Below, piece after piece: positions 9,146-62,215 of a stretch of 64,000 nt of DNA (within the stretch, counting starts at the first letter, position 1; each line of letters starts with the position of its first letter). The DNA comes from Candidatus Methylomirabilis limnetica (lineage in GTDB: Bacteria; Methylomirabilota; Methylomirabilia; Methylomirabilales; Methylomirabilaceae): the NCBI RefSeq assembly GCF_003044035.1, contig NZ_NVQC01000023.1, positions 77,301 through 141,300 on the forward strand. The letters are read 5' to 3'. The notes under the pieces were generated by a model, which did not search any database, was not told the DNA's origin, and was given only the letters and a program-made list of their open reading frames with translations. The translations under genes were made by a program, and so were the position numbers.

Positions 9146-9216
9146 GTAACTACTCAGGTGTTTAGGCTGTAGGCTGAAGGCTGTTAGCCGCTGCGCATAG
9201 ACCGAATCAAGGCGCC
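9146..9216. repeat. MITE-like element, truncated copy (left TIR plus part of subtype-B core)
   Basis: gtaactactcaggtgtttaggctgtaggctgaaggctgttag followed by gcgcatagaccgaatcaaggcgc, matching the 37337 and 36024 copies. Confidence 0.6.
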
Positions 9217-9402
9217 CAGGACTTTCTTCTCCTCGGCCATCAGGCGGCGGACCAACTCCAAGGCCGCCTTGATCTGGGCGCTCCTCCACCGGCCACGCAT
9301 TGATCGCTGACGCATATCGCTGCTTTGGCCCCATGCCCGCCATCCGCCCTTTTTACCCTTGCAAGCAGAAATCTGTCACGCAAAAGCCCTCGGCCGGTCG
9401 CC

Positions 9403-10638
9403 CTAAAAAATTGAGGTCACCAGCAATAAGAGCGTGAGCACAACTATCACGAAGGCCGTTCCCCAGCCGATTAGGTTGGAGATCGGCGAGTTCACCTGCG
9501 CGCCCATGATCTTTCGGTCGTTGATCAGCAGGAGCATGAAGACCAGGACAGCCGGGAGCAGGATGCCGTTTAAGGTCTGGGAGAGATACATGATGGTGAT
9601 GAGCGGCGCCTTGGGCCAGAGGATCAGCAGCGCGCCGGCGCCCACCATGCTGAGGTAGATGCTGAAGAACCCGGGAGCCTCGCGAAAGGTCCGATTGATG
9701 CCCGTGTGCCAGCCAAGCCCCTCGCAGACCGCATAGGCGGTGGAGAGGGGCACGATGGCCGCGGAAAAGATGGAGGCGTTCAGCAGACCCACGGCAAAAA
9801 GGAGCGTGGCGTACTGGCCTGCGAACGGTTCGATCGCCATCGCAGCCTGTTCGGCCGTCTCGATCTGAATACCGTTCGCATTGAGGGTGGCACCGCACGC
9901 CACGATGATGAAGAACGCCACGGCTGACGCGACAATACTGCCTGTCCAAACATCGAACTTGACGTACCCATAGTCCTGGCGCCGAACTCCCTTATCGACG
10001 ATCGACGCCTGGATGTAGAACTGCATCCAGGGCGCAATGGTGGTTCCCACGAGGGTGATGAGCATAGTGAGATAGTCGCGCTCGATATGGAAGGTTGGCC
10101 TGGCAGTCTGCCGCAGGACGGTGGGCCAATTGGGGCTGGCCAGAAAGGCCGACACCAGATAGACGACATAGAAGAGGCTGGCGCCGAGGAAGATCCGTTC
10201 CACGAGGCGGTACGTCCCCTTGACGACCAACCAGCCCACCAGGAGCGCGGCCAGCGGCACCGTTGCGTATCGGCTCCACCCAAAGATCTCCATGCTCGCC
10301 GCCACGCCCGCGAATTCGGAAACGGTGTTGGCCAGGTTCGCCAGCACGAGAACCACCATCACGCCAACAGTGATCCGGACCCCAAACCGCTCGCGGATCA
10401 GCTCGGCCAACCCCTTGCCGGTCACGACCCCCATCCGCGAGCCCATCTCCTGGACGATGCCGAGGGCGATGGTGATGAACAACAGCGACCAGAGCAGACC
10501 ATAGCCGAACTGGGCGCCGGCAAGGGAATAGGTCGTGATCCCCCCCGCGTCCTGATCGACGCTGGCGGTAATGATCCCCGGGCCCATGATGGCGAGGAAA
10601 CGGAGGATCCGCCGCTTCTTGATCCGCGAAAGCCGCAT
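9403..10638 (-). CDS. NRAMP/SLC11-family transporter with NRMT-like (putative Mg2+) site substitutions
   Basis: Full NRAMP fold (GPGIITASVDQDAGG...AQFGYGLLW). The TM1 motif is DAGG where canonical is DPGN. The TM6 motif is TTIAPW where canonical is A-x-x-MPH. Confidence 0.8.
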   Translation of the reverse strand: MRLSRIKKRRILRFLAIMGPGIITASVDQDAGGITTYSLAGAQFGYGLLWSLLFITIALGIVQEMGSRMGVVTGKGLAELIRERFGVRITVGVMVVLVLANLANTVSEFAGVAASMEIFGWSRYATVPLAALLVGWLVVKGTYRLVERIFLGASLFYVVYLVSAFLASPNWPTVLRQTARPTFHIERDYLTMLITLVGTTIAPWMQFYIQASIVDKGVRRQDYGYVKFDVWTGSIVASAVAFFIIVACGATLNANGIQIETAEQAAMAIEPFAGQYATLLFAVGLLNASIFSAAIVPLSTAYAVCEGLGWHTGINRTFREAPGFFSIYLSMVGAGALLILWPKAPLITIMYLSQTLNGILLPAVLVFMLLLINDRKIMGAQVNSPISNLIGWGTAFVIVVLTLLLLVTSIF

Positions 10639-12880: not shown

Positions 12881-12944
12881 AAAAACATACCACATTTTAT
12901 TTAATGATTTCCCGCCTATCACTGAATGGTTACTTCTTTACGTT

Positions 12945-13072
12945 CATTTTCGTTGAGGGTCGATACCCTGCGGCTTGCCGCGAGTTCGTCATACCGGCGG
13001 AAGCCGGTATCCAACAGGGCCGACTGGATTCCCGCATATCCAGTACGGGGCAGGCTTGTCAAGCACGGAATG
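12945..13072. repeat. REP-2 structured repeat (multi-hairpin, reverse orientation)
   Basis: ggtcgataccctgcggcttgccgcgagttcgtcataccggcggaagccggtatcc...gtcaagcacggaatgac. Contains the 8-bp stem ataccggc-GGAA-gccggtat. Confidence 0.65.
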
Positions 13073-13168
13073 ACAATCAAAAGAAAAGGACATCTGGCGC
13101 ACTATCCTCGTTTGTCCGTAGGCAGGAACGCAGCACACCTGCCGCATAGGAGGCGCAAGTTCTGTAGC

Positions 13169-17165: not shown

Positions 17166-17346
17166 GGTTTCATCTTCTGTTCTGGCCCGTCATTCCGTAC
17201 TTGACACGCCTGCCCCGTACTTGATACGGCCTGCCCCGTACTCGATACGGGGGGGGAATCCAGCCGGGCCCTCTGGATACCGGCTTCTGCCGGTATGACG
17301 AACTTACGGCAAGCCGCAGGGAATGAACCCCCAGTGGATTCAAGAA
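17166..17346. repeat. REP-2 structured repeat (forward orientation, with duplicated gcctgccccgtacttgatacgg module)
   Basis: gtcattccgtacttgacacg...ggataccggcttctgccggtatgacgaact...gggaatgaacccccagtggattcaag. Confidence 0.65.
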
Positions 17347-17381
17347 TCAGCTATTGGAGGCTGACAGCTAATCGCTGCTTT

Positions 17382-18548
17382 TTACAGCACTCGCTTGAGG
17401 CCATGAATGGCCTGGCGGGTCCGGTGTTCGTTTTCCACCAGGGCGAATCGCACATACTCGTCCCCGTACTGTCCGAATCCGATCCCCGGGGACACGGCAA
17501 CCTTCGCCTTGTCGAGGAGGAACTTCGAAAATTCCAGAGACCCCATGGTCCGGTACGACTCAGGGATCTTTGCCCAGACAAACATGGTTCCCTTCGGCTT
17601 CGACAGATTCCACCCGATCCGGTTCAGCCCATCTACCAGCGCATCGCGCCGCGTCCGGTAGATCTCAACCGTCTGCCCCACGCATTCCTGCGGGCCGTTC
17701 AGCGCGACGATCGCCGCGATCTGGATCGGCTGGAACATCCCGTAATCCAGGTAGCTCTTGAGCCGCGTGAGGGCTGCGATGATCCGCGGATTGCCAACAC
17801 AGAAACCGACCCGCCAGCCCGGCATGTTGTAGCTCTTGGAGAGCGTAAAGAACTCCACCCCGATCTCCTTTGCCCCAGGTACTTGCAAGAGGCTTGGTGC
17901 CTGATAGCCATCAAAGGTCAGGTCCGCGTAGGCAAGATCGTGGATCAGGATCAGGTGGTGCTCCTGAGCGAACGCCACCACCTTTTCGAAAAAGGCGAGG
18001 TCCACGGTAGCGGTGGTGGGGTTGTGGGGAAAGCTCAGGATCAGCAGCTTGGGCGGTGGCCAGCTCTCCCGATGAGCAGCCATCAGCGCCCCATAGAAGT
18101 CGGTGCCCTCTTCAAGACGAACGCTGCGGACGTCCCCCCCGGCGATGATCACGGAGTAAGGGTGGATCGGGTAGGTCGGACTTGGCACCAATGCAACATC
18201 CCCGGGTTCCACTACCGCCAAGGCCAGATGCGAAAGTCCCTCCTTGGCGCCGATGGTCGCAATCGCCTCCCGCTCGGGATCGATCTCAACCCCATATCGC
18301 CGCCGATACCAATCAGCGATGGCCAGCCGGAGTTTCGTAATCCCGCGCGATGCGGAGTACCGATGATTCCGAGGGTTCCTGGCTGCCTCACAGAGCTTCT
18401 CGACGATGTGTGGAGGGGTTGGCAGGTCGGGGTTGCCCATCCCGAAGTCGATAATGTCATCGCCACGAGCGCGCGCCTTGACCTTCAGCTCATTCACGAT
18501 ATTAAAGACATACGGGGGCAACCGACTGATTCGGTGGAACTCCTCCAT
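17382..18548 (-). CDS. PLP-dependent aminotransferase, class I/II
   Basis: Fold I aminotransferase pattern with candidate PLP Lys in [15 protein letters not shown]. 388 aa. Confidence 0.8.
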
Positions 18549-18757
18549 CTGCGCTCCTTTTGGTCACCGTGGCGACCGCTCATCTCTATGGAAAACTCGC
18601 CCTCACGCTACCAAAAGGAGCTAATACTGTCAATATGAAAGAGGGCCTGTGCGGGTTCATGGTAGTCTGCGGGTGACTCCGGCGATGGCGGCGGGAATTG
18701 CGGATCAAGCGTGGGGAGTCGCTGATCTATTAGGGGGGATAAAGTGGACCAGAAGAG

Positions 18758-19009
18758 CTACCGAAGAAGAGGCAAATGCCTTTTCGCGCACTCCAACTCA
18801 ATTCCAAGTAGACGGGTCATCTGTCTGACGTGTCCAATTTGAATTACGGGATCCCGTCCCCCGTGTTCACCGGTTGGCAATCCGCGAAAAACAAGCCCAT
18901 TGTGATAAACCCAAAAATGATGCTTTTTCCGTTCGTATCTGAAGCCTGGGGCACAGGCAGTGAGCATTGCCAAGACGTTCTTAAACTCTACCTGCCCGAA
19001 CGATGACAA
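18758..19009 (-). CDS. HicA-like toxin (mRNA interferase family), putative
   Basis: 83 aa. KKHHFWVYHNG...LPTGEHGG...IQIGHVRQMTRLLGI resembles the HicA H-x-k-l-x-h-G...H-x-G...l-lkqlGl pattern. Confidence 0.4.
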   Translation of the reverse strand: MSSFGQVEFKNVLAMLTACAPGFRYERKKHHFWVYHNGLVFRGLPTGEHGGRDPVIQIGHVRQMTRLLGIELECAKRHLPLLR

Positions 19010-19020
19010 AGACCACCACG

Positions 19021-19494
19021 CTAGGCGGCTACGGCCATCTGCGGCTCTAAAACGTTATCCTTCGGGTTGAAGACACGCAACAGCTTCACCTGTACGGAAC
19101 GTGGGGAATTGGCGGGCCTTTTCTGGAGACCCTTAGAAAGAGCCTCAGCCGTGATCTTTCCAGCGCGAACATCAAGAACAGCGGCATGCCATTCTTCCTC
19201 TGTTGGACAATTTATCCCCTTGAAGAATCGACCCACTTCCGCCTTGAACGAATTGAAGTCCTTAGCGTCTTCGGCAATATCGAACAGAATGACGGTGAAT
19301 GCTTTTCGAAACTCGCGCTGCGCCTCCATGAATGTGGCACCTCCCGCCGACAAGTCGCCAGGCTGGACGCCATACATCCACCAACCGTCAGATTCCTCGA
19401 CCGCTAAGCCGCGACCATGAACGGTAATACCTGCCAAAAAGCCCTCTCCCGATACCTTATCCTGAAAAGTGAACAGCAAAGGATACTGATTCAT
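19021..19494 (-). CDS. HicB-like antitoxin (UPF0150/RNase H-like fold), putative
   Basis: 157 aa, immediately upstream of the HicA-like ORF. N-terminal YPLLFTFQD...GEGFLAGI...GATFMEAQREF resembles HicB. Confidence 0.35.
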   Translation of the reverse strand: MNQYPLLFTFQDKVSGEGFLAGITVHGRGLAVEESDGWWMYGVQPGDLSAGGATFMEAQREFRKAFTVILFDIAEDAKDFNSFKAEVGRFFKGINCPTEEEWHAAVLDVRAGKITAEALSKGLQKRPANSPRSVQVKLLRVFNPKDNVLEPQMAVAA

Positions 19495-19724
19495 GCGATA
19501 CCCTCATTGCTCAAACATTGATTGGTATATCTCTTAATTGCGATTTTTTATAGTATACCCCCAGACGACGCTGTCAAGAAAAATGTTATCTACAAGTTAA
19601 ATATGCTACCCCATAAGGTATTAACCAACATCCATGCCATGAGCAAAATCAGCCCAATCAAATTAGGACACTACCGAGGGCCTGAAGTAGGCCGCCGCGA
19701 AGCCTGATGTCCCGACGCGAAAGC

Positions 19725-19925
19725 TACATCCGTTCGGGAGCGGAGACGCCAAGCAACCCAAGCGTGTTGGCCATGACCACGCGAAGGGCGGCCACAAGCG
19801 CCAGGCGTGCATGCGCGAGATTCCTATCGGCGGAGATAATCCGATGGCGGGTATATGGTAGCCGTGAAACTGCGCGGCGAGGTCGTGCAGATAGATGGTG
19901 AGCCTGTGCGGCTCCAGCACCTCTG
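19725..19925 (-). pseudogene. displaced and decayed copy of the argS 3' end (last ~66 codons), frameshifted
   Basis: About 88% nucleotide identity to 28041-28240 (the true argS 3' end), starting exactly at the stop codon. A 2-bp insertion near 19853-19856 breaks the frame. Confidence 0.8.
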
Positions 19926-19933
19926 CAATTCGG

Positions 19934-22477
19934 CTAGACCGGTGAATTGAGCAGCTTCTTTAGATCATCTCGCCAGTCACGATCCGCGTATTCTCCCTCG
20001 TCCAGGACTTGAAAGCGGAATGTCTCGTCCCGGAAGTCTTCCGCGAGTTTCTGCCAGGGGACTTTCTGGCCAACTTTTTGAAAGTAGCTGCCCACCGTCC
20101 GCTTGTAGGTTGTGTCTTCGTTTCCTTTGAGATGCTTGCCCTTGCTTTCGACCACAACCACAGAGGCAACCGGCTTTTTATTGTGACCCTGTTGAACCAC
20201 GAAATCCGGATAAATCTTATTCCGCTTGTAGCCTTGGATCGAGAAACAATCCACACCAACGAGATTTCGATACCACCACAGGACTTCGGGATGCTTGTCG
20301 AGATACAGTGCGACCGACTTCTCGTACTCATTGAGGTCGTCCGGCACGTAATCAAAGAGGGACCGTTGGACCGGCTCGTGATCGACATGTATCAGCTTCT
20401 TTGTTCCCCGTATCTCAATCTTGGGTGGAATTTCAAAGCGCCCTTCCACACATTCAAGATAGAAGCCGAGCCGTTTGTTTTTGAACAGCGCCTCGAACGC
20501 TTCTTGCGTTTGACGGTCCGTCCCACGCTGGATCAATCCGACAATCTTTTCACGCACCTCAAACTTAACCAGTCCCAACCGGCCTGAAAGCTCCGGGGTG
20601 AGCTGATACAGACGATCAGTCACCCGACTGACGATCTCCCGTAGCTGCTTCTGGCTGAAGTAATTAAACGGCAGGCTGGCTACCAACCAGGCCTTCACCT
20701 GCTCATCAGTCTCCAGGGTAACAGATTCGCGTTCCGCCACACGCTCAAGATCATCTTGTTCAAGGGTCAGGCGATAGATGGAATCCTTTGCCGCTTCGAT
20801 CGCTGCCGTCATGTTCCAATCTATTCCGGCGTAATCGAACCGTGTGACATCGACCTGACTGAGCAAATGCCGGAAATAGTCGAGGACATCGTACGTGTCT
20901 CCGTGCTTGACGCAAAAGCGGGGCAGATAAATCTTACCCTCGAACTCCCGATAGTAACGGCGGAATTCTTCACGAATAGTAGTCACGCGCTTCTGTCCGG
21001 CTTTGCCGTCGTCCGTACTGCGGTCAACGACGCTGGCCGCGTCGCCTTCGTAGCCCTCCTGTTCCAGCGCCTTCTTGACCTCACGAGAAATATCCGCCGC
21101 CTTTCGCCGCAAACAAAACACATAGCTCTCGTTCAGCTCGTCGAACGGCGTCCTCTCCACATACGGCTGCCGAAGCACCCGCCCTACCAGTTGGGTCATA
21201 CTCTGCTGGCTGCCGGTGTTGTTCAGGGAGACCAGGATATAGGCGAAGGGGCAATCCCATCCCTCCTGCAAGGCTGCCTTGGTGATAATCCATTCCACGC
21301 GGCATCCTTCGGCGAGGAGATCAATGCCCTCAATATCGTCAGTGTCCGAGGTCTTGATGGCGATGGCCGATTCATGGACACCCTCTCTCTGCATCAGATG
21401 TTGCTTCACGTCTTCGCTGTGGACGAAGCCGCTGTCCCGCTGGTCCTTCCCTGTCCGTTCGACTTGGACCAGCACGATCGGGCGAATGAGTTTCTCGCTT
21501 TCCCTGTAATGCTTCTCCGCGAGTTTCGCTAAGTGCTCTCTCTTTTCTCGCGCCTGCGTCAGGCAATTCTTCCAAGACGGCTGGTTGGCGTTGGCGATGT
21601 TGATCGGCAACTTGATCATCTGTTCACCAAGCAGTTCTTTGCCGGTTACCCGAACGAGGACGTTGGCTTCCTTATGTGGCGTGGCGGACAGTTCGACCAC
21701 CACTGAGGCATTGAATCCCTCAATGGTCTTCCGAGCGAGCTCGCTGGTGGCCTTGTGTCCTTCGTCCAAGATGACCGGCGGCTCGCAGAGACGGACCAAG
21801 TTGCCTAGCGAGGTTTTGACCAACCTCTCGTCCTGGTCGTCGTCATCCCCCAGCATGTCTAGGTTCAGGAACTGAACCTTGAGCGCCCCGTGCTTTTCTG
21901 GATCATTTTCGGGCGGGAAATGCTGGACGATGTTGCCCCCGCTATCGCGGAAGAACTTGAGCTGCTCGCGCGTCTCGCGGTTGGTACTGGCGAGTTTCAG
22001 GAGTAGGATATTTAGGTTGCTGCGTAACTGCCCCGGCGTCAGGCGAAAAATCTCGTGCTTTTCCCACACCTCAATACGGCGTGACAGCACGAACTCCAAT
22101 GATTCGCGATAGAAGTGCCTACGGTCGCGAAGCGCCTTGAGCGTGTCCTTGTATATCTGATCGCTGGGAACCACCCACAACACCAACCCAGAGCCGTTGC
22201 GGTTCTTCAGAATAGTTTGATAGACAAGCCCAAGAATCTGAGTAGCCAGTAAAGTCTTCCCGCCGCCGGTGGGTACCTTGATGCAACACGTAGGGAGGTC
22301 TTTTCCTAGACCGTTCTTGCGTGGTCGATACTCGCCGGGCAGATGAAACAGTTTCTTCGCTTTATCCCAAGCAGCCAAGGATGCGTACTGACTCCCGGCC
22401 GTTTGCTCCGAAGCCAACGCGTCCAGAAAGAGTTTAACTTCGCTTATGACGCGTTCCTGATAACGCTTCAGTTGCAT
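19934..22477 (-). CDS. res: Type III restriction endonuclease Res subunit (SF2 helicase + nuclease)
   Basis: Walker A VPTGGGKT and DEGH box. 847 aa. Lies immediately downstream of mod. Confidence 0.85.
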   Translation of the reverse strand: MQLKRYQERVISEVKLFLDALASEQTAGSQYASLAAWDKAKKLFHLPGEYRPRKNGLGKDLPTCCIKVPTGGGKTLLATQILGLVYQTILKNRNGSGLVLWVVPSDQIYKDTLKALRDRRHFYRESLEFVLSRRIEVWEKHEIFRLTPGQLRSNLNILLLKLASTNRETREQLKFFRDSGGNIVQHFPPENDPEKHGALKVQFLNLDMLGDDDDQDERLVKTSLGNLVRLCEPPVILDEGHKATSELARKTIEGFNASVVVELSATPHKEANVLVRVTGKELLGEQMIKLPINIANANQPSWKNCLTQAREKREHLAKLAEKHYRESEKLIRPIVLVQVERTGKDQRDSGFVHSEDVKQHLMQREGVHESAIAIKTSDTDDIEGIDLLAEGCRVEWIITKAALQEGWDCPFAYILVSLNNTGSQQSMTQLVGRVLRQPYVERTPFDELNESYVFCLRRKAADISREVKKALEQEGYEGDAASVVDRSTDDGKAGQKRVTTIREEFRRYYREFEGKIYLPRFCVKHGDTYDVLDYFRHLLSQVDVTRFDYAGIDWNMTAAIEAAKDSIYRLTLEQDDLERVAERESVTLETDEQVKAWLVASLPFNYFSQKQLREIVSRVTDRLYQLTPELSGRLGLVKFEVREKIVGLIQRGTDRQTQEAFEALFKNKRLGFYLECVEGRFEIPPKIEIRGTKKLIHVDHEPVQRSLFDYVPDDLNEYEKSVALYLDKHPEVLWWYRNLVGVDCFSIQGYKRNKIYPDFVVQQGHNKKPVASVVVVESKGKHLKGNEDTTYKRTVGSYFQKVGQKVPWQKLAEDFRDETFRFQVLDEGEYADRDWRDDLKKLLNSPV

Positions 22478-22487
22478 GAGAGGATTG

Positions 22488-24158
22488 CTACTTCAAGTTG
22501 AACGGGACAATCATGGGCCGCACCGTCCGCTTCGTTTTCTGCTCAAACTTCGCCAGGTCATCACGGTGCACCCAAATTTTCTCACAGTAAACCACCAAGC
22601 TCCTGTTCTTCTCCATCTTGTCGAGACCCTTGAGCCATTCCATGTCCAATCGGCGGTCTTCCTGACCGTCTGGAGTGTAGAGCAGATAGTAACTGGTCCC
22701 GTGATGTTCACCGATCTTCCCGGTTTTCTCGTTCATCGCCTTCCGGTCGAAGTCTCGGCTGGTCTCCGTATAAAAGATGTACTTGGCGAGATCGTCATAG
22801 CCGGGCAACTGCTTGCCCCAATCGCGGTATTCACCGAAGAGCGGTTTGCCGACGCAGACATAGGCGAAGGAGCCGCCTAGCCCCGTAACTTTTTCTTTCT
22901 TACCCTTCGGGCTCGTATACGTAAACCCCTGAATGACCCGCCGGACCCGCTCCGCTGTGATCTTCTGGCAGATGTTGAACTTGTTCTTCTCCTGCTCTTT
23001 CATTTCGTAGGGAATCTGAACAAGAATAAACCTCCGGTTGCCGCCGTCTTCCTCGTTCAGCCTCAATACTGCATGAGCGGTCGTTCCGGACCCGGCAAAA
23101 GAGTCAAGAACAAAATCGTCTCCCACGGCTACCTGTGCCACCAAGTCCCGAATAAGTAGAGACGGCTTCGGGAAAGGTAATACTGTACCGATCTGGTCTC
23201 CAAATATTTGCCGTATCTCTTCCGTTCCGTCGCTGGTAAAGACTCCGTCAATCACACTCGGGAATCCGAGAACGCCTGATTCCAGTTCTTTAAGGAACAC
23301 CTTCTCTCGTGGCCGTCCTCCTGCTTTTCGTGGCCAAAAGATTCTTTCTTCGGCAATCTTTTGGTCCATCGTCGTCTTACTGCAAATCCATCCTGTTGCC
23401 GGAGGACATCGATACACCTCTTTAGTTTTGGGGTTAACAAAGTCGTAGTGAAGATTGGGTCGCTGTTCTTTAGTCGCTTTGCCTAAAAGGCTACAGCTTG
23501 TCCAATCACCACGTGTATCCTTGTCAGGATTGGAATATTTCGTCTCACTACGCCTTTTTCCAAGAAGCCGACCATCCGAGGATTTCCGATACGCCAGGAT
23601 GTATTCGTGGTCAACCGAAACTCCCGTTTTGGGTCGAGTGTCCGGGAAGTTTCTCGATTTCCAAATAAGCACACCCAGCCTGTTTTCTGGGCCGAAAATC
23701 TCATCCATCATCATCCGCAGATTGTGGACTTCGTTATCGTCGATACTGATGAATATGGCCCCATCGTCGCGAAGAAGTTCCTTCAATAGCTGGAGGCGCG
23801 GATACATCATGCAGCACCACTTATCGTGGCGAGTAGCGTCCTCTCCCTCTTTGCCCACCGCTCGCCCTATCCACTCTTTGAACTGCGGCTGAGTGAGGTT
23901 GTCGTTATAGACCCACCCTTCATTGCCGGTATTGTATGGCGGATCAATATAGATACACTTGATCCGTCCCGCGTGGGTGGGAAGAAGGGCCTTTAAGGCG
24001 ATGAGGTTGTCACCCTCGATGATGAGGTTGCCGTCGAGTGCTGGCTTCTCGCCCTTCCCTAGGACCGACAGCTTGGCGTCGAACTCCAGGGTATGGTGCG
24101 AAATCGTGTGGTGATAGCACTCAATCGCGGTCTTCCCTTTGAACTGCAAAACCGGCAT
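22488..24158 (-). CDS. mod: Type III R-M Mod DNA N6-adenine methyltransferase
   Basis: IYIDPPYN catalytic motif IV then LDSFAGSGTT motif I (beta-class order). 556 aa. Adjacent to res. Confidence 0.85.
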   Translation of the reverse strand: MPVLQFKGKTAIECYHHTISHHTLEFDAKLSVLGKGEKPALDGNLIIEGDNLIALKALLPTHAGRIKCIYIDPPYNTGNEGWVYNDNLTQPQFKEWIGRAVGKEGEDATRHDKWCCMMYPRLQLLKELLRDDGAIFISIDDNEVHNLRMMMDEIFGPENRLGVLIWKSRNFPDTRPKTGVSVDHEYILAYRKSSDGRLLGKRRSETKYSNPDKDTRGDWTSCSLLGKATKEQRPNLHYDFVNPKTKEVYRCPPATGWICSKTTMDQKIAEERIFWPRKAGGRPREKVFLKELESGVLGFPSVIDGVFTSDGTEEIRQIFGDQIGTVLPFPKPSLLIRDLVAQVAVGDDFVLDSFAGSGTTAHAVLRLNEEDGGNRRFILVQIPYEMKEQEKNKFNICQKITAERVRRVIQGFTYTSPKGKKEKVTGLGGSFAYVCVGKPLFGEYRDWGKQLPGYDDLAKYIFYTETSRDFDRKAMNEKTGKIGEHHGTSYYLLYTPDGQEDRRLDMEWLKGLDKMEKNRSLVVYCEKIWVHRDDLAKFEQKTKRTVRPMIVPFNLK

Positions 24159-24633
24159 CTGTCGTTGGACTCCTATGAGTTTGCTAGGGGAATGGGTGGA
24201 GGCTAGACCACGGCTAACTATCCGTCAAGCAAAAACAAAAAGGCTCGAATCGTTCCTAGTCGAACCTTCGCGAGAGGTTGAGGGTCAGGTTTTGACGTTA
24301 ACAATTGAAGTCCCTCACGTGAATAAACGGCCCTTATCCGTCCTCGCTCCCAATTCAGATGCGACTCCACCGCTCCCTGCCCGTTGGCCCATCTGCTCCC
24401 GTCGCCTCGCACGGTTCCGTCTGCCGAACGCCAAGTCGTCCGCTGCCCCAGGTATCGGTCACGCTGAGGAGATTACCGTTGAGATCGTACCCGAATTGGG
24501 TGAAACCGTTCAAGGGATCGTCGATGGCCCGAGCAATAAGTCAACACTCAAGTCTGACCCCGAATTTCTGACCCCTGTGTGATTGCAAGACCTGTCCCTC
24601 TAACCTCCGATCGATTTCGGCCGGGTCCGAATC

Positions 24634-27060
24634 CTATCGCCCGTGGCAGGCTTTATATTTCCTCCCGGAGCCGCACGGACAATGCTCATTCCTGCCAATC
24701 TTCCGCGACGAGGTCGCATGTATGACTTGCTGCTCGATGTGTGACCGGCCTCGAGAGAGCTCCGCTTCGGAGAAAGTGCTAGGCGTTATGATGCGAATCT
24801 TTCTTATGAGATAGGTGCTCTGATTCTTTAGTTGGACCACAAGCCATCTGGTGCTGCCGCCTTGTCGCATCCGCGCAGCGCACCTGACCAGTTCCTCATT
24901 GAAGTTGTTTTCCGAGGCATGGGTGACACTCAGCCCGATTGAGTTGCTGCTGAACGGCAGATGGAGACTTGGCTGTCTGCTTGCACTCCGTCTGCCCTCT
25001 AGAGCTACGAGATTCGCTTCGAACTCGTCTCTGCCTTCTTGGCCCATAGAAAAGAGGATCGAGGCGACCTCGAATCTCCCAGGCAAGCGAGATGTACTTA
25101 GTGCTTCTAAGAAGCCGCTCATCTTTGGGGGTAGGTTCTGTTCCGGAACGCGTGGAGACTCGCCGGCGTAACGTGCAGCAAAATAGAAGTCGATGTGCTT
25201 CATATAGGAAGGATCAAACGACATGTGATCCATTCCTCTGATGGGCAGCTCGTGGTATTGGTTCAGCTTCTGATAGAGGGCGACATGCTCTATTTCGTCA
25301 TGCTGCGACATGACGGTCTCTGATGATGCCTGGAGTCGCTGCTCCAAGAAATGCACGAACTGGAGATCCTTACCAATAAAGAGCTCGGCGACGATTCGAA
25401 GGTCATCAATTGATATGTGCCACGGAAAGGACTTACTGAGTCCCGGGTCGAGGATGGATAGCACAGCGATCTTGGCGCCGACCCAACCAAGGAACTCTCG
25501 GGTAACTACAACCCGAAAGACTCTCCGGTAGTCGGCGATGCGCAGTCTATGTACGACGTTCTTTCCTGACTCATCGTAGAAGACAGTTTCGGGTTGGGAC
25601 TTGATGTAACGCTCAGCTCTTTCTGATTGACGCTGGCCCGCGATGATCAGGTCAGAAAGATCGCTCGCTAGGCTTTTCGGGGCGCCTCGGCTCGCCGCGC
25701 CCGACAGGCCGCCGGATTTGACTTCGACGAGAAAGAGAAGATCATCGACGCCCAACATGATGTCTAATTCGGTCAGGTCGCCAGGACGGTCGGGATTCGG
25801 ATAATAGACCTGCTCAAAGACAAAATCCGGTCGAAGCACACTACTCAAGAGCTCCTTCGATACCTTCTCGATGTGATCCGAATGTTTCTTCGCCATCATC
25901 GTGCCGTCGCCAGCTCTCTTGCTGAGAAGGTCTCCTTCAATGATCTCGGCAATGCGATCTTCGAATCCTGAGTGATAGAACGAATAGAACCGATCGCCGA
26001 CCTGGAGAAACGGCTTGAAGTGCCAAAGGGAGTCGGACAACGGACTCAGGTCATCGTGCTTTGTTAGCGTCGGATCTCGGAGAACTGCTTCTCCTGGCCT
26101 GACTGACAACGTCGATAGAAGTGATCTCGGAAGCGACGTCAAATCGGTTATGTCGAAGATTGCCGGCGTGAAAGTTAGTCGAGCTTTCTCTTGCGCCTCG
26201 GTATGAGCGTCTGCAAACTCGGGTGACGCAACCGCTTGTCTGGTGCGCTCCATGTTCTCTTCCGTGGCGTCTGAGTCCACGGCATACCCTTTCTCTCTGA
26301 GGCGCTCCATCAGGGCATTCGTAGCGCTCATGGCGTCGGCGTATCTGCCCAGCACTCCTGTCTTTTGATACTCCTCGAGGGCCTGTAGTCCGTGCATCAG
26401 GTCCTCGACGCTAATTCCATAGAGCTTCTTGATCCACGGCTCGTAGGGAAACAGTGAGTCTTTCCAATAGTCCCGAAGGAAGAAGGGATAGCGTTGGACC
26501 CGGATCGCTAGCCTAGCCGTGTCCAAATGAAATCGAAGGTCGTCGATTTCAGAAGGCGGAGTCGCCTCAGTCCTTCTTGTAAAGAGATACTGTTGTGTTA
26601 GACGCAGGACATCGAGCGTGAGCGACCAGACCGCCTCCCACTCTTCCTCAGTCGGCTCAGCCCCGGTCGTGTTCGCTTCTGTTCGCGCGATCAGGTACTG
26701 CAAATACTCCACGCCCGGCAGAGAGAATGACTCTTCAGGACCAAACTCGTTCTCAGAGCGGTACTTCAAGAATAGAGGCAGCAGCACGTAGGCGGCGCGG
26801 TGCAGCAGCAGAACAGCATCGTACTTGTGGATCAGGTCCTGGAGGTTGCCAACTTTCTCTGCCAGCTCCTCGTGAATTCTCCTGTTCGCGTCCGCCGCTC
26901 TCCTCAGAAACTCGCGGTGCTCTTCCGGGGTCGACTGGTTCGAGAGCAAAACACTTCGCCCATAGCGGGCGATACTCAGTGGCCCACGGCTAACAACTTC
27001 ATCGGGCGTTGGGCGAATCCACTTCGTTCTGCCCTTTTTTCGGCTGCTCTTCTTTCCCAT
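24634..27060 (-). CDS. large uncharacterised protein: basic N-terminus, central PD-(D/E)xK nuclease-like motif, C-terminal SEC-C zinc motif
   Basis: 808 aa. Central ...FEQVYYPNPDRPGDLTELDIMLGVDDLLFLVEVKSGG (E..D..EVK). C-terminus GRNEHCPCGSGRKYKACHGR. N-terminus MGKKSSRKKGRTKW. Confidence 0.6.
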   Translation of the reverse strand: MGKKSSRKKGRTKWIRPTPDEVVSRGPLSIARYGRSVLLSNQSTPEEHREFLRRAADANRRIHEELAEKVGNLQDLIHKYDAVLLLHRAAYVLLPLFLKYRSENEFGPEESFSLPGVEYLQYLIARTEANTTGAEPTEEEWEAVWSLTLDVLRLTQQYLFTRRTEATPPSEIDDLRFHLDTARLAIRVQRYPFFLRDYWKDSLFPYEPWIKKLYGISVEDLMHGLQALEEYQKTGVLGRYADAMSATNALMERLREKGYAVDSDATEENMERTRQAVASPEFADAHTEAQEKARLTFTPAIFDITDLTSLPRSLLSTLSVRPGEAVLRDPTLTKHDDLSPLSDSLWHFKPFLQVGDRFYSFYHSGFEDRIAEIIEGDLLSKRAGDGTMMAKKHSDHIEKVSKELLSSVLRPDFVFEQVYYPNPDRPGDLTELDIMLGVDDLLFLVEVKSGGLSGAASRGAPKSLASDLSDLIIAGQRQSERAERYIKSQPETVFYDESGKNVVHRLRIADYRRVFRVVVTREFLGWVGAKIAVLSILDPGLSKSFPWHISIDDLRIVAELFIGKDLQFVHFLEQRLQASSETVMSQHDEIEHVALYQKLNQYHELPIRGMDHMSFDPSYMKHIDFYFAARYAGESPRVPEQNLPPKMSGFLEALSTSRLPGRFEVASILFSMGQEGRDEFEANLVALEGRRSASRQPSLHLPFSSNSIGLSVTHASENNFNEELVRCAARMRQGGSTRWLVVQLKNQSTYLIRKIRIITPSTFSEAELSRGRSHIEQQVIHATSSRKIGRNEHCPCGSGRKYKACHGR

Positions 27061-27171: not shown

Positions 27172-27621
27172 TCAGTTCTTGACCTCCAATTCGCGTAACG
27201 GCACGACAATGCTATGACCCCTCAGCTTTTTCACCATGACCTCGTCGGCAGTGATGAGCGGGTATCCCAGTTGCTCACCAAGAGCCACATAGAGGGCGTC
27301 ATAGATGGTGATCTTGTAGGCCCAGGCAATGGCGTTGGCTTTACGCAGTAGTTGAAAATCAGTATCTGTGACATTGAGGTGTAACCCTTCAAGCCCGGCT
27401 ATGGCTCTTGCTCCATGCTCCTCCTTGGCCCTTGAACCGAAGCGGATCGCGTTGAGAACCTCCAAGAAGGTGAGTTCCGTCACATAGATGGTGCAGCGCC
27501 CTGATACATGGAACTCTTTGAGCGCCAGAGCCCGGTCTCGGTCAGGTTCATCGTGCTCAACAAACCATTTAATGAGAACCGACGCATCTACCACGTAACC
27601 CTGGTGATATGCGGGTATCAT
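27172..27621 (-). CDS. vapC: PIN-domain toxin VapC
   Basis: YVVDASVLIKW (Asp1), LTFLEVLN (Glu), IYDALYVALGE and ITAD acidic residues. 4-nt overlap with the upstream antitoxin gene. Confidence 0.75.
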   Translation of the reverse strand: MIPAYHQGYVVDASVLIKWFVEHDEPDRDRALALKEFHVSGRCTIYVTELTFLEVLNAIRFGSRAKEEHGARAIAGLEGLHLNVTDTDFQLLRKANAIAWAYKITIYDALYVALGEQLGYPLITADEVMVKKLRGHSIVVPLRELEVKN

Positions 27622-27890
27622 CGATCTCCCTTTAAATTTGTATCGCGGAAGCGGCGAATGATCGCTACGGGATCCCAATCCCCAAGCTCTTTAGCCAGGT
27701 CATCAATCCTATGGGAGGCCTCCTGCATCTTCTCCCGCTTTTCCTCTTCTTCCCGCTTCTTCCGTTTCGCCTGCAAGTATTCTTCTAGCGCAGCCTGAAT
27801 GAGAGCGCTGCGATTGGTTCCCTCATCTTTCGCCTCCTCGTTGATCTCATCGAGCAATGCATCTTTCAAGAAAACGTTTACGCGTGCCAT
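27618..27890 (-). CDS. vapB: ribbon-helix-helix (CopG-like) antitoxin VapB
   Basis: MARVNVFLKDALLDEINEEAKDEGTNRSALIQAALEEY, an RHH N-terminus. ATGA overlap with vapC. Confidence 0.7.
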   Translation of the reverse strand: MARVNVFLKDALLDEINEEAKDEGTNRSALIQAALEEYLQAKRKKREEEEKREKMQEASHRIDDLAKELGDWDPVAIIRRFRDTNLKGDR

Positions 27891-28039: not shown

Positions 28040-29713
28040 CTACATCCGTTCGGGAGCGGAGACGCCCAGCAACCCAAGCGCGTTGGCCATGACCACGCGA
28101 AGGGCAGCCACCAGCGCCAGGCGAGCGCGCGTGAGATTCCTATCGGCGGAGATAATGCGATGGCGGGTATAGTAGCCATGAAACTGCGCGGCGAGGTCGT
28201 GCAGATAGGTGGTGAGTCTGTGCGGCTCCAGCGCCTGCGCCGCCCCGATCACCAGTTCCGGGTAGAGCGCCAGTTGCTTAATCAACCCGATCTCTTCCTG
28301 CAGATCGAGCGACTCGAGGGCATCCTCTGGGGTGGGAGCTGGAAACTGAGCCTTTGCCGCCTGCCGGAGAATGCTGCACAGGCGTGTGTGCGCGTACTGC
28401 ACGTAGTAGACGGGGTTTTCCTCGGACGCCGACTTGGCGAGCTCCAGGTCAAAGTCCAAATGGCTGTCGCACCGTCTGGTGAGAAAGATGAAGCGCGCCG
28501 CATCACGGCCCACCTCCTCAACCAGCTCGTCCATCATCACGAACTGCCCGGATCGCTTGGACATCCGGACCTGCTCGGTCCCTCGCATTAAACGGACGAG
28601 CTGCACGATCAGGACCCTGAACGCCTCGGGAGGATGGTCGAGCGCCTGCATTGCAGCCCGCATCCGCGCAATGTAGCCATGGTGGTCCGGGCCCCAGAGA
28701 TCGATCACCTGGTCAAACCCGCGAGCGAACTTGTCCTGGTGATAGGCGATGTCCGGAAGAAAATAAGTGATATCGCCGTCGCCCTTCACAAGGACCCGGT
28801 CTTTATCATCGCCAAAGGCGGTCGAGCGAAACCACAGGGCGCTCTCATGCTCATAGAGGAAGCCGCGCTCCCGCAGCGCCTCCATCACCCGCTCTGGCTC
28901 GCGGCGTTCCCGCAGGGCCCGCTCGCTAAACCACCCATCAAAGGTGACCCCGTATGCCTCAAGCGAGGCCCGCTGCCAGCGGAGGATCCGCTCGACCGCA
29001 AAGCGACCCAGTCGATCGCGGCGCTCCGGCTCCGGCGCTAAGAGCGCCTCGGGCCCGTGCTGCTCCAGAAACTCGCGGGCCAGATCGATCAGATAGTCAC
29101 CCGGATAGGCCTCCTCTGGCATGGGGCAGTCCTCACCCAGGCGCTGACGGCACCGCACCTCCATCGCCAACGCGAGGTTGCGGAATTGGTTCCCCGCATC
29201 GTTCACATAGTACTCGCGGTACGGCCGATGCCCGATGGCCTCTAAGAGCCTAGCGATGGCATCACCGATCGCCGCGGCCCTGGCACTGACCACGACGAGC
29301 GGGCCGGTCGGATTCGCGCTGACAAACTCCACGAGTACGCGGCGCCCGCCGCCGACATCAGCCCTGCCGTACGTCGATCCAGCTCGGAGGATCTCCTGAA
29401 CGAGATGACGCCAGAACGGCCTGGCGATAAAGAAGTTCAGATAGCCGGCGCCCGCCACCTCGACGCGATCGACCAGATCGGAAGGAAATGTTGCTGAGGC
29501 GGCAATCTGGAGCGCGATCTCGCGAGGCTTCTGCCTCAGCGCTTTCGCCAGGCCGAAGGCCAGCGTGGTAGAGAGATCGCCGAAGGCCTGGTCGCTCGGA
29601 TATTCCCACGTAAGCTGTGCGGGAGCATCCTGCGCAAGCCCGCTCTCTAAACCAGCCTGCTTGATGGCGGTCAGAAGCGATTTCGTCAGGTTTGTTTTGA
29701 GAGCACTAATCAT
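28040..29713 (-). CDS. argS: arginine--tRNA ligase
   Basis: 557 aa, class I aaRS with KMSKS-like MSKRSG. Anticodon-binding C-terminus ends in ...APERM. Confidence 0.9.
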   Translation of the reverse strand: MISALKTNLTKSLLTAIKQAGLESGLAQDAPAQLTWEYPSDQAFGDLSTTLAFGLAKALRQKPREIALQIAASATFPSDLVDRVEVAGAGYLNFFIARPFWRHLVQEILRAGSTYGRADVGGGRRVLVEFVSANPTGPLVVVSARAAAIGDAIARLLEAIGHRPYREYYVNDAGNQFRNLALAMEVRCRQRLGEDCPMPEEAYPGDYLIDLAREFLEQHGPEALLAPEPERRDRLGRFAVERILRWQRASLEAYGVTFDGWFSERALRERREPERVMEALRERGFLYEHESALWFRSTAFGDDKDRVLVKGDGDITYFLPDIAYHQDKFARGFDQVIDLWGPDHHGYIARMRAAMQALDHPPEAFRVLIVQLVRLMRGTEQVRMSKRSGQFVMMDELVEEVGRDAARFIFLTRRCDSHLDFDLELAKSASEENPVYYVQYAHTRLCSILRQAAKAQFPAPTPEDALESLDLQEEIGLIKQLALYPELVIGAAQALEPHRLTTYLHDLAAQFHGYYTRHRIISADRNLTRARLALVAALRVVMANALGLLGVSAPERM

Positions 29714-34204: not shown

Positions 34205-34346
34205 CTCTTTGCTTTGATTGTCATTCCGGGCTTGATAAGCCTGCCCCGTACTTGATACGGGGGGAATCCAGTCGGGCCCTATGGATACCGGCTTCCGCCG
34301 GTATGACGAACTCGCGGCAAGCCTCGGGGAATGAACCCCCAGTGGA
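34205..34346. repeat. REP-2 structured repeat fused to a MITE remnant
   Basis: gtcattccgggcttgataagcc...ggataccggcttccgccggtatgacgaactcgcggcaagcc...gaacccccagtggattcaaga. Confidence 0.65.
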
Positions 34347-42261: not shown

Positions 42262-42385
42262 TCGGTATCGTCTTCTGTTCTGGCCCGTCATTCCGTGCTT
42301 GACACGGAATCCAGCCGGGCCCTCTGGATACCGGCTTCCACCGGTATGACGAACTCGCGGCAAGCCGCGGGGAATGAACCCCAGT
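42262..42385. repeat. REP-2 structured repeat fused to a MITE remnant
   Basis: cttctgttctggcccgtcattccgtgcttgacacggaatccagccgggccctctggataccggcttccaccggtatgacgaactcgcggcaagccgcgggg. Confidence 0.65.
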
Positions 42386-60504: not shown

Positions 60505-60575
60505 GGCAATCCAGAGAGGCGCTGGATTCCCCCGTATCAAGTACGTGGCAGGCTTGTCAAGCCCGGAATGACACC
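60505..60575. repeat. REP-2 structured repeat, partial copy
   Basis: ggattcccccgtatcaagtacgtggcaggcttgtcaagcccggaatgac. Confidence 0.5.
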
Positions 60576-60729: not shown

Positions 60730-62055
60730 TCACGACACCGTTTGATTCTTCGCGAAGAGGATATAGGACCTTGCTCGGCCCTCACGGATGGCCTGCTCGA
60801 CCAGGGCCCGAGGCTCCTTCGCCTTGACTCTTGGCAGGATCGCCTCGAAGAACTGGATGTAGAAATCGTCTGGCACCACGACTACGGAGGCACGCATTGT
60901 GAGCCCCGCCCGGTCGATGGTTCTCGCGTAGCGAACAGTACGGCTTTTACCGGACGCAATCCTGGTGTCAAAGAGTTCTTGTGTCAGATCAAGCGTGACC
61001 TCTCGCCCGATCCGTTCCTCTTGCACACTCTCATTCACCTGCTTACCATCCGTATCTACTAACTCCCATCGGACTATGATCTTCGGCGTAACGTAGGTTG
61101 GGACATGATGCCCAACCCCGGTATTAGCCAGCGTGATTTCAGCCTGAACTTGCTCGCCGACCTGGTAGCGCTCCTTATTTACCGAAAGACGGACGGATAC
61201 GCCTTGCTTGACCATCTCAGGATCATGGATCCCCCGCCATAGATGCCGCCGCTCCGGCATATGGCAGCCCTGACAGGTCATCCCTCCCAGCGCATACGGC
61301 CCCTCTTTCCATTCATTATAGGTGTTTTCGAGCAGCTTACCGTTCAGGGCAGACCCACTCGGCTCGAACTGGTGGCACCCTTTGCAGAACTCGGATCGCT
61401 CAAAGGCCGCCGTCCTGATGGCGCCGGCGTGGGGGAGCTGTGCTACCGGAGCGGAATTCTCAATCGAGCCGTCCCGCTTTGGCGGCCCGAAGCGCTGGTG
61501 CTTCCGAACATGGCACCCGGCACAGGTCAGACCCTTTTGCTGCAGCGAGGCCGAAAAGGCGCGGTTCGTTTTGAACTTCAACGCGGTGCTGCCCCAGACC
61601 CCTGACGCGCTCGGCAATGGCGTCGCAACGGCGCGGCGCTTCTTGAACAGAGAGGGGGAACCACCGCCTTTCTTCACGACCTTCTCCTGCTGCTCGGTGA
61701 GAGGAGCATGACAACTGTAGCAGAGGATCGCCATATTGGGATCACCATGGATAAACTCCATCGTCTGGCCTATCACGCCCGGCCCCATACTTTTACTGTG
61801 GAGGCTGCTGCTCCAATCCTCGTACTGAGTTCGATGGCAGACGGCGCAACTTTCCGGGTCAAGAGATGCCTCTATCGACGAGAAATGGGCGGGCGGCTTA
61901 CCTTGAGGCGGGATGGGCGTCTGCCAATGGCGCGTGAGAAACTCAAGCTGCGCGTCGTCATCGGCAGCGGGTGGCGGGTCTTTCATCGCCCATGCGCCAA
62001 CCGAAAGCCCCAGGCCTGCGATCACGACAGCGGTATACAGAAGAAGCCGTTTCAT
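60730..62055 (-). CDS. pentaheme c-type cytochrome (secreted)
   Basis: Five CxxCH: CAVCH, CYSCH, CAGCH, CKGCH, CQGCH. Signal peptide MKRLLLYTAVVIAGLGLSVGAWA. Start set at 62055 because the upstream in-frame 77 codons are the translated REP-2 repeat. Confidence 0.75.
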   Translation of the reverse strand: MKRLLLYTAVVIAGLGLSVGAWAMKDPPPAADDDAQLEFLTRHWQTPIPPQGKPPAHFSSIEASLDPESCAVCHRTQYEDWSSSLHSKSMGPGVIGQTMEFIHGDPNMAILCYSCHAPLTEQQEKVVKKGGGSPSLFKKRRAVATPLPSASGVWGSTALKFKTNRAFSASLQQKGLTCAGCHVRKHQRFGPPKRDGSIENSAPVAQLPHAGAIRTAAFERSEFCKGCHQFEPSGSALNGKLLENTYNEWKEGPYALGGMTCQGCHMPERRHLWRGIHDPEMVKQGVSVRLSVNKERYQVGEQVQAEITLANTGVGHHVPTYVTPKIIVRWELVDTDGKQVNESVQEERIGREVTLDLTQELFDTRIASGKSRTVRYARTIDRAGLTMRASVVVVPDDFYIQFFEAILPRVKAKEPRALVEQAIREGRARSYILFAKNQTVS

Positions 62056-62065
62056 TCTCGTCGAG

Positions 62066-62215
62066 GGTCGATACCCTGCGGCTTGCCGCGAGTTCGTCAT
62101 ACCGGCGGAAGCCGGTATCCAGAGGGCCCGACTGGATTCCGTGTCAAGCACGGAATGACGGGCCAGTACAGAAGTCGATACCCCGTAGCTTGCCGCGGGG
62201 TAGTTCATCGATGGC
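62066..62215. repeat. REP-2 structured repeat (reverse orientation, plus an extra partial unit)
   Basis: ggtcgataccctgcggcttgccgcgagttcgtcataccggcggaagccggtatcc...gtcaagcacggaatgacgggccagtacagaag. Confidence 0.65.

Follow-up and report, generated by a model that had tools for sequence, protein, structure and literature searches.

What is the function of the large protein encoded between a Type III restriction-modification (R-M) system and a VapBC toxin-antitoxin pair in Candidatus Methylomirabilis limnetica (NC10)? Its gene lies near argS, in a 64,000-nucleotide stretch of contig NZ_NVQC01000023.1 (positions 77,301 to 141,300, hereafter the window), and an earlier note, made from the sequence alone, had singled it out as the best candidate there for an undescribed defence component. 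Based on structure prediction and on comparison with its relatives, we favor, with moderate confidence, the view that the protein is a self-contained, autoinhibited and horizontally mobile sensor-nuclease for defence against phages or mobile elements.

The predicted nuclease core and its SEC-C tail

The open reading frame (ORF) starts with ATG, ends with a stop codon at 24634-24636 and encodes a protein with a pI of 6.5. It is a real gene, since the identical protein is present in GenBank and RefSeq (PTL35517.1 and WP_107563030.1, locus tag CLG94_09620) and hundreds of full-length homologues are found. The three modules described in the earlier note are present, and the strings it quoted are all found in the translation: a Lys/Arg-rich N-terminus (MGKKSSRKKGRTKW, residues 1-14, with Lys or Arg at 7 of the 14 positions), a core carrying a D-x12-EVK motif (FEQVYY...ELDIMLGVDDLLFLVEVKSGG, residues 415-451, giving D433-x12-E446-V-K448) and the SEC-C metal-binding motif at the C-terminus (HCPCGSGRKYKACHGR, residues 793-808). 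Using an alignment of 51 sequences, AlphaFold2 (AF2) generated a model with a mean pLDDT (predicted local distance difference test) of 88.8 and a pTM (predicted TM-score) of 0.86; the structures of the protein discussed here are predictions. The gene and the segments encoding its domains are listed below.

24634..27060, minus strand: complete gene of the NERD-nuclease/SEC-C protein, 808 amino acids (aa), 92 kDa (ORF list, translation, exact public match, homologues of 40-94% identity)
27016..27060, minus strand: Lys/Arg-rich disordered N-terminal tail, residues 1-15 (7 of the first 14 residues Lys or Arg; pLDDT <50)
26026..27015, minus strand: beta-meander, nine-helix domain and conserved linker, residues 16-345 (AF2 secondary structure)
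25381..26025, minus strand: predicted NERD-type PD-(D/E)xK core, residues 346-560 (conserved E398, E431, D433, E446, K448, Q478, R481)
24703..25380, minus strand: conserved helical segment followed by a variable alpha/beta C-terminal domain, residues 561-786 (D588-E589-x2-H592 motif)
24637..24702, minus strand: SecA-type metal-binding domain (SEC-C motif), residues 787-808 (C794-x-C796-x8-C805-H806 with S798)

In the AF2 model, an alpha-beta-beta-beta-alpha-beta core spans about residues 383-550, with the D...(D/E)xK motif on strands 2 and 3 and an acidic residue on helix 1, the arrangement of the PD-(D/E)xK fold. Analysis of conservation in 61 full-length relatives (20-43% identity) revealed that D433, Q478, D553, R575 and E589 are invariant and that E398, E431, E446, K448, R481, D588 and the SEC-C cysteines are at least 90% conserved. 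Because D433 is invariant and E398, E431, E446 and K448 are so highly conserved, the D...ExK motif is not a chance match. The nuclease fold that the earlier note had read from the motif is thus seen in the predicted structure together with a conserved catalytic set, and the core is predicted from the model to be a catalytically equipped PD-(D/E)xK nuclease.

The assignment can be refined to the NERD type. The Pfam NERD profile (PF08378) matches the equivalent region in 32 of the 61 relatives, with a best E-value of 2.8e-9, and two of them, P0250 (23.4 bits) and P0222 (22.3 bits), exceed its gathering threshold of 22.1 bits. The Methylomirabilis protein belongs to NERD at the family level, by transitive homology through the relatives that match the profile. 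When the family profile was aligned by hhalign with one bona fide NERD protein, the neighbor of a Colwellia homologue, the strands of the D...ExK motif were correctly aligned, at a non-significant score. No Pfam domain other than NERD and SEC-C recurs in the 61 relatives. For the protein itself, the Pfam, NCBIfam, PADLOC and PHROGs profiles match nothing beyond the SEC-C tail of ~20 residues, which agrees with the earlier claim that it falls into no named defence family, and sequence and profile searches of the PDB returned the zinc peptides of SecA and YchJ only.

The regions on either side of the core are less well conserved. The disordered N-terminal tail is weakly conserved, with gaps of 14-37% in the alignments, and is followed in the AF2 model by a three-stranded beta-meander (residues 21-41), a nine-helix domain (45-300) and the conserved linker. 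The helical part belongs to the most variable regions of the family, with 16% identity in distant members. Residues 16-345 gave no Pfam or PDB match and no known relatives were found for them; judging from the model, they form a putative sensor or regulatory domain. On the other side of the core, a conserved helical segment (551-640) leads to an alpha/beta domain (641-786) and then to the terminal SEC-C knuckle. Overall, the flanking domains vary most and the core and SEC-C are conserved. The sequence contains no Walker A motif, so that a hidden ATPase, which the earlier note had proposed to look for, is ruled out at the level of sequence motifs.

Structural neighbors of the core, with their match scores in brackets, are N.BspD6I (11.1), the Upx defence nuclease (10.6, with 241 residues aligned), the small subunit of R.BspD6I (9.9), HindIII (8.6), FokI (8.2), AF1548 (8.1), Shedu SduA (7.5) and Can2 (7.4). 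By these comparisons of a predicted fold, DNA would be the favored substrate and RNA a possible one. The resemblance to the Type IIS cleavage domains (N.BspD6I/R.BspD6I and FokI) and to HindIII comes with a sequence identity of 7-11% and does not extend to global similarity (Foldseek TM ≤0.2, E >0.01); unlike these enzymes, the family has no methyltransferase traveling with it. In the Foldseek search of the PDB, no match was obtained at E ≤1e-3 and no global structural relative of the protein was found.

The best structural matches being cleavage domains of restriction endonucleases, the protein could be a solitary, Type IV-like, modification-dependent restriction endonuclease, cleaving modified invader DNA without a trigger. 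Its stand-alone PD-(D/E)xK domain, without a cognate methyltransferase across the loci, and its frequent location beside R-M systems of Types I, IIG, III and ISP fit such an enzyme. However, Type IV enzymes are recognized by a modified-DNA reader and/or an NTPase motor, and neither was detected: Pfam, NCBIfam and PADLOC reveal no modified-base reader (SRA, EVE/YTH, Mrr_N, DUF3427 and similar) and no GTPase or ATPase motor, in keeping with the missing Walker A motif, and the N-terminal domain is an unassigned helical bundle. That domain may contain a modified-DNA reader of an unrecognized kind. All in all, we consider trigger-free restriction of modified DNA rather improbable.

The SEC-C module is the most conserved element of the protein. 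It is present in 58 of the 61 relatives, with 64% identity even in distant members, and the tail matches PF02810 with 32.4 bits (cut-off 20.4, E 8e-8) and the full ligand set, as an exact CXCX8CH motif in which the conserved Ser and the KYK residues are kept. It also aligns with the SecA zinc-peptide structure 1sx0 (E 2.9e-6) and with the SecA peptide 1ozb, and it is matched by the PADLOC models for prokaryotic E2 and E1-E2 systems. The SecA metal-binding domain (MBD), YecA and YchJ show the identical CXCX8CH pattern, the conserved Ser and basic or aromatic residues. The common part is limited to the last 22 residues, and the protein lacks the SecA ATPase, UPF0149 and UPF0225.

This short stretch accounts for part of the current annotation, where the protein is called 'hypothetical', 'SEC-C metal-binding domain-containing protein' or, in UniRef, 'Preprotein translocase subunit SecA' (UniRef100_A0A2T4TWP1). 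The UniRef name, which derives from the 22-residue motif, is a mis-annotation and has probably spread through the family. Together with the presence of SEC-C motifs in SecA, YecA and YchJ, it is what would suggest a housekeeping role, that of a translocation or chaperone protein related to SecA or that of a DNA-repair nuclease. Such a role is contradicted already: the similarity to SecA goes no further than the motif and includes no ATPase motif, sister genomes lack the gene at this locus, and the family is patchy across phyla, plasmid-borne and often pseudogenised. We regard it as very unlikely.

The SecA MBD binds zinc or iron, SecB and ribosomes and takes part in autoinhibition, which is relieved by this binding; equivalent behavior has been suggested for YecA and YchJ (bioRxiv 10.1101/613315). 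A similar zinc motif in YchJ has been linked to DNA binding (PMC13377102). By analogy, the SEC-C module of the Methylomirabilis protein could act in docking or regulation at ribosomes, as a nucleic-acid-binding zinc knuckle, or as part of an autoinhibited state.

Taken at its strongest, the analogy with SecA leads to a ribosome-associated RNA nuclease. The MBD would hold the NERD nuclease at the ribosome, or at a different polyanionic partner of universal occurrence, where infection would be sensed and phage RNA, mRNA, rRNA or tRNA cleaved. Translation would thereby be shut down during infection, as a translation-coupled or abortive-infection defence and not as DNA restriction. Besides the exactness and the conservation of the tail, this is supported by the stand-alone defence protein ZwsA, whose NERD domain is an RNA endonuclease (bioRxiv 10.64898/2026.04.06.716636). 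The module is also retained in the Candidate Phyla Radiation (CPR), Bacteroidota and Acidobacteriota. SecB is usually absent from these lineages, and the retention of SEC-C there points to a universal partner. On the other hand, all strong structural neighbors of the core are DNA endonucleases, the homologues of Bacillus and Exiguobacterium have no SEC-C tail, which is thus not essential to the family, and the DNA binding associated with the YchJ motif offers another role for it. We judge a ribosome-stationed RNase to be unlikely. If true, it would represent a new logic for single-protein defence and the first functional explanation for SEC-C motifs on defence proteins (Rugutis; the PADLOC E2 and E1-E2 models).

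Distribution and genomic contexts of the family

A word-indexed search revealed 136 homologues, nearly all of them full length (~800 aa, 40-94% identity), from sources that include Accumulibacter, Omnitrophota, Polyangiaceae and several CPR lineages. The exhaustive profile search gave 901 representatives of 50%-identity clusters at E <1e-30 and 2675 at E <1e-10, with the full architecture kept in nearly all of the 150 best-scoring matches listed. In a scan of species-representative genomes, 30 loci with homologues were found in Gamma-, Alpha-, Beta- and Deltaproteobacteria, Bacteroidota, Acidobacteriota, Verrucomicrobiota, Gemmatimonadota, Saccharibacteria and Bacillota. Cultured hosts among them include Terasakiella pusilla DSM 6293, Colwellia sp., Rhodohalobacter sulfatireducens, Bacillus wiedmannii, B. 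cereus and Exiguobacterium; the tailless homologues of Bacillus and Exiguobacterium (~730 aa) also lack the N-terminal meander. Using tblastn, the family was located on seven plasmids (of Photobacterium, Aliarcobacter, Rhizobium, Bradyrhizobium, Lactococcus and Exiguobacterium). No member turned up among 50,697 phage records. Several homologues are fragments or pseudogenes (L019, L020, L023 and L034). This patchiness and decay are typical of accessory genes with a fast turnover. No paper was found in the literature searched that combines NERD with SEC-C, uses the RefSeq product name or shows this architecture, and the family was not found in recent discovery papers (DefensePredictor, modularity networks).

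On the Lactococcus plasmid pUCCL637D (L040, 5358-8718), an IS30 insertion splits the gene into parts of 640 aa and 146 aa, annotated as 'NERD domain-containing protein' and 'SEC-C metal-binding domain-containing protein', respectively. The plasmid also carries AbiEi/AbiEii. The locus represents a natural knockout, in a dairy strain collection screened for anti-phage systems.

All-against-all clustering of 729 neighboring ORFs from 38 loci showed that no gene family travels with the homologues across these loci; the gene is therefore stand-alone. Two neighbors recur within narrower limits. The first is a large serine recombinase belonging to a mobile-element backbone, present in 10 loci of which ~6 are independent. 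In Accumulibacter, Gemmatimonadetes and Parvibaculum/Rhodobiaceae (L001, L016 and L023/L025/L026), this backbone combines the recombinase with an unassigned protein of ~450 aa and a protein of ~166 aa, and the Parvibaculum-type loci keep only a C-terminal remnant of the homologue. The second is a downstream gene of ~315 aa that occurs in a CPR subclade only and not in the window. It has no Pfam match, overlaps or abuts the 3' end of the homologue in CPR/Saccharibacteria genomes (12426-13379 in L005/L006, 12352-13281 in L014 and 2082-3068 in L017), shows 40-79% identity between loci and may be a lineage-specific partner.

The other neighbors are varied and rich in defence and mobility genes. 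Homologues were found with CBASS and a serine recombinase (L001); with Abi_alpha, a PARIS-like AAA_15/DUF4435 pair, a Type ISP enzyme and HipA (L002); with the coupling protein of a type IV secretion system (T4SS) and ImmA/IrrE (L004); with a Y1 transposase directly upstream (L005); with a recombinase beside smpB and DUF3800 (L007); and with AbiTii, Type III CBASS, an E1/E2 system and AAA_13 (L009). The three closest relatives on long contigs (59-65% identity) are located in a conjugative T4SS element, at a plain chromosomal site beside ABC transporters, and next to HigBA and AAA_21/DUF4276. Plasmid-borne members have as neighbors a Lit-family exclusion protein, AbiE, AbiV, HEPN-MNT, HEPN/Toprim, SAVED and Hok/Gef. 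In 24 further loci, the Pfam families most often detected in the 135 ORFs closest to the homologues were ResIII and DEAD (6 each), N6_Mtase (4), HsdM_N and SWI2_SNF2 (3 each), and MmeI, HSDR_N, Methylase_S, Resolvase, Phage_integrase and PIN (2 each), while PADLOC recognized Type I R-M, DrmD, BrxH, mad2, PbeA and AbiJ among the neighbors in the further loci. HsdR lies directly upstream of the homologue in a Saccharibacteria locus and in Bacillus wiedmannii, and a CHAT protease is found near it in a Verrucomicrobia locus. The families that occur most often near the gene are those of R-M, Abi, CBASS and toxin-antitoxin systems, DISARM/BREX helicases and recombinases. Neighbors and accessory, mobile distribution together agree, in qualitative terms, with what is generally expected of defence genes, and the homologues are found in defence islands, on plasmids and in integrative or conjugative elements, not mainly in the housekeeping contexts that the earlier note had named as a refutation.

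Directly upstream of the homologue of Colwellia sp. MB3u-45 (L033), positions 9191-9979 encode a canonical NERD protein of 263 aa (PF08378, E 2.4e-33) with a topoisomerase-type C4 zinc ribbon. Two different nucleases, each a NERD domain plus a zinc module, are thus encoded side by side.

The same contexts would also be compatible with a mobile-element gene that serves its element, by excluding a competing plasmid or integrative and conjugative element, by post-segregational stabilisation or by processing the element's own DNA. The serine recombinases, the adjacent transposase and T4SS genes, the insertion sequences around the gene and its carriage on conjugative or mobilisable plasmids all argue in this direction. 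However, across the 38 loci no single recombinase, relaxase or transfer gene is consistently associated with the family, many copies reside in chromosomal defence islands without transfer genes, and the island in the window contains no integrase; moreover, competition between elements would itself be defence. Since it is the norm for defence genes to be carried on mobile elements, context does not separate an element-serving role from the defence reading. We do not expect an element-serving role to be the correct explanation, and give it a low probability.

The argS island

The island at argS that the earlier note had proposed is real, and its borders are now defined by a duplication of the argS 3' end. 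The features that surround the nuclease gene are:

28040..28236, minus strand: island border 1, genuine argS 3' end forming one arm of the direct repeat (local alignment)
27618..27890, minus strand: VapB-like ribbon-helix-helix (RHH) antitoxin (sequence; the L044 orthologue has RHH Pfam matches)
27172..27621, minus strand: VapC (PIN) toxin (PIN PF01850, E 1.6e-14; probable ATG at 27621)
22488..24158, minus strand: Type III R-M methyltransferase, mod (PADLOC MTase_III, E 1.2e-143)
19934..22477, minus strand: Type III R-M restriction subunit, res (PADLOC REase_III, E 2.6e-138; Pfam ResIII)
19724..19922, minus strand: island border 2, duplicated non-functional argS 3' end (blastn against sister genomes; within-window alignment)

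VapB and VapC, which share an ATGA start-stop overlap, lie directly upstream of the nuclease gene and are preceded by argS and phosphoglucomutase, and mod and res follow directly downstream on the same strand. The direct repeat is 197 bp long (184 of 197 positions identical), keeps the TAG stop of argS and has its second copy just beyond res; it encloses an island of 8.1 kb composed of VapB, VapC, the nuclease gene, mod and res. The GC content is ~0.52 between roughly 18.5 and 28 kb versus ~0.60 in the flanks. Such an att-like duplication is the classic scar left when site-specific integration takes a housekeeping gene's 3' end as its target. An 85-aa ORF at 19663-19920 is an argS pseudo-fragment.

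Comparison with three sister Methylomirabilis contexts shows a common backbone (84-93% DNA identity) of phosphoglucomutase, argS, a variable slot, aminotransferase, purF and H+-pyrophosphatase. In the sisters, the slot is occupied by VapBC and DUF433/DUF5615 (L044) or by MazE with or without an HNH protein (L045-L047), and both the nuclease gene and mod-res are absent from it. In Methylomirabilis, the 3' end of argS appears to be a hotspot where integration recurs. In L044, a shorter argS copy of ~90 bp follows the VapC gene.

As the nuclease gene shares its strand and its repeat-bounded island with vapBC on one side and mod-res on the other, it might encode a third subunit or an accessory factor of one of these systems. 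The earlier note had correctly placed it between the two, but a functional link does not emerge from the comparison. Adjacency to a Type III system was seen in the window only, among ~35 non-redundant loci, so that mod and res do not consistently co-occur with the family, and R-M systems of other types recur beside the homologues. The closest relatives occupy the T4SS, ABC-transporter and HigBA contexts described above, and the sister locus L044 has VapBC at argS without the nuclease gene. Within the island, a non-coding gap of 475 bp (24159-24633) separates the stop codon of the nuclease gene from the start of mod. An accessory role is thus largely refuted by the comparative contexts, leaving it hardly credible, and the adjacency is incidental.

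The 475-bp gap contains no Rfam match and no convincing promoter or terminator call, the promoter and terminator scans having given counts at or below the shuffled expectation. No Rfam match was found in the island at E ≤0.1 and no tRNA gene in the window. Two minus-strand ORFs at 19021-19494 (157 aa) and 18758-19009 (83 aa) belong to the variable slot, beyond the repeats that bound the island; Pfam gives no match for them at E ≤0.01, and they show no similarity to the DUF433/DUF5615 proteins of the sisters. They may form another toxin-antitoxin pair, the 83-aa product being HicA-like by eye only (…KKHHFWVYH…). A plus-strand ORF of 447 aa at 17295-18638 was rejected as spurious: it has no family match and overlaps the real gene at 17382-18548 on the minus strand, a 388-aa aminotransferase conserved in the sisters beside purF and H+-pyrophosphatase. 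Finally, an intergenic repeat of ~120-130 bp is dispersed in the window in at least 6 copies (81-93% identity) and also occurs in sister Methylomirabilis genomes. With its GC-rich palindrome (CCGGCGGAAGCCGG), it looks like a REP (repetitive extragenic palindromic) or MITE (miniature inverted-repeat transposable) element. The copies lie at about:

12941-13090, dispersed repeat
17189-17333, dispersed repeat
34213-34341, dispersed repeat
42306-42381, dispersed repeat
60522-60573, dispersed repeat
62051-62140, dispersed repeat

Known immune nucleases and the favored explanation

One close parallel is ZwsA (Zowangsin), a stand-alone defence endonuclease with a NERD domain from Pseudomonas aeruginosa that cleaves the genomes of single-stranded RNA phages and whose E/D/E/K mutants lose defence (bioRxiv 10.64898/2026.04.06.716636). 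Both are single-gene multidomain effectors in genomic islands, with auxiliary domains on both sides of the nuclease, and both display an E...D-x12-E-x-K signature with identical D-to-ExK spacing (E535/D567/E580/K582 in ZwsA and E398/D433/E446/K448 here). However, ZwsA is a VHS-DUF647-NERD-S4 protein of ~82 kDa with NERD near its C-terminal quarter (bioRxiv 10.64898/2026.04.06.716636), whereas the Methylomirabilis protein is larger, at 92 kDa, has NERD at its center and ends in SEC-C. No Pfam match to VHS, DUF647 or S4 was found in it or in 60 relatives. Membership of the ZwsA family was therefore rejected, the architecture being inconsistent with the published description.

Two other single-protein nucleases are similar in logic. 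Upx (Gao_Upx) is a dual PD-(D/E)xK anti-phage nuclease whose autoinhibition is relieved by a phage protein (PDB 9wuf; PMC13099982), and Shedu SduA is a further precedent for a single-protein autoinhibited defence nuclease (bioRxiv 10.1101/2023.08.10.552793). The protein differs from Upx in having no PADLOC Upx match and not the ~1200-aa NTD-MD-CTD architecture with two nucleases. It also differs from Shedu SduA (DUF4263), in which the nuclease is C-terminal; here it is central, with ~360 more residues and the SEC-C tail, and neither DUF4263 (PF14082) nor the PADLOC Shedu models give a match. Rugutis, an experimentally validated single-gene anti-phage protein of 359 aa from a lactococcal plasmid (PMC11381338), shows that a SEC-C motif can occur in defence proteins. 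Its motif is N-terminal rather than C-terminal and no nuclease domain has been reported for it; compared by description, identity with Rugutis was rejected on size, motif position and architecture. NERD domains have also been described in multi-gene defence loci, at the N-terminus of PglW (Pgl/BREX type 2) and in the NERD-helicase partners of UG34 reverse transcriptases (PMC9009780, PMC9226505). There they are fused to kinase or helicase modules, unlike the stand-alone members of the present family, which have no NTPase. The protein thus resembles Upx, Shedu and ZwsA in its proposed logic and is a member of none of them.

With these precedents, the favored explanation can be formulated as a mechanism. 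The central NERD-type nuclease (E398, D433, E446, K448) would be kept inactive by the variable N-terminal helical and C-terminal alpha/beta domains between which it lies, until a cue derived from a phage or plasmid is sensed. Metal-dependent cleavage of nucleic acid would then stop the invader or the infected cell. The SEC-C module would serve in docking or regulation, with the ribosome or nucleic acid bound as a polyanionic partner, or it would contribute to autoinhibition as in SecA. We infer the defence function from context only, where the circumstantial case for it is good, and autoinhibition, triggering and the SEC-C role are likewise proposed.

Several points weigh against this explanation. 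The protein itself does not match PF08378 even at E ≤1, its NERD assignment resting on relatives, and sensing and autoinhibition by the flanking domains are conjecture, since no known fold was found in them. The neighborhood evidence is qualitative, without a background-corrected statistic, and comes from a sample of loci biased to long contigs. Some homologues (L005, L049) are found beside ordinary housekeeping genes, with no recognizable defence gene nearby. No report of protection against phages or plasmids by any family member was found in the literature, and PADLOC-DB dates from 2023, so that a newer named system could be missed.

Candidate nucleases are common in defence islands, and this family, although uncharacterised, widespread and stand-alone, is of a known sort, that of single-protein PD-(D/E)xK immune nucleases, and not categorically new. 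Even if defence is not confirmed, the analysis corrects a mis-annotation and documents the argS 3' end as an integration hotspot in Methylomirabilis. If the function is validated, a widespread single-gene immune nuclease family of ~900 clusters at 50% identity would be added, spanning Proteobacteria, Bacteroidota, Acidobacteriota, Verrucomicrobiota, Gemmatimonadota, NC10, Bacillota and the reduced CPR/Patescibacteria, which at present escapes PADLOC and is annotated only as a SEC-C protein or mislabeled as SecA. It would constitute a second, architecturally distinct defence effector with a NERD domain, and it would be a tractable system for studying SecA-type zinc modules outside export and the sensing of infection by large autoinhibited nucleases. 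With its SecA-type module, its breadth, which extends to CPR, and its homologues in cultured strains, the family is worth pursuing and easy to test.

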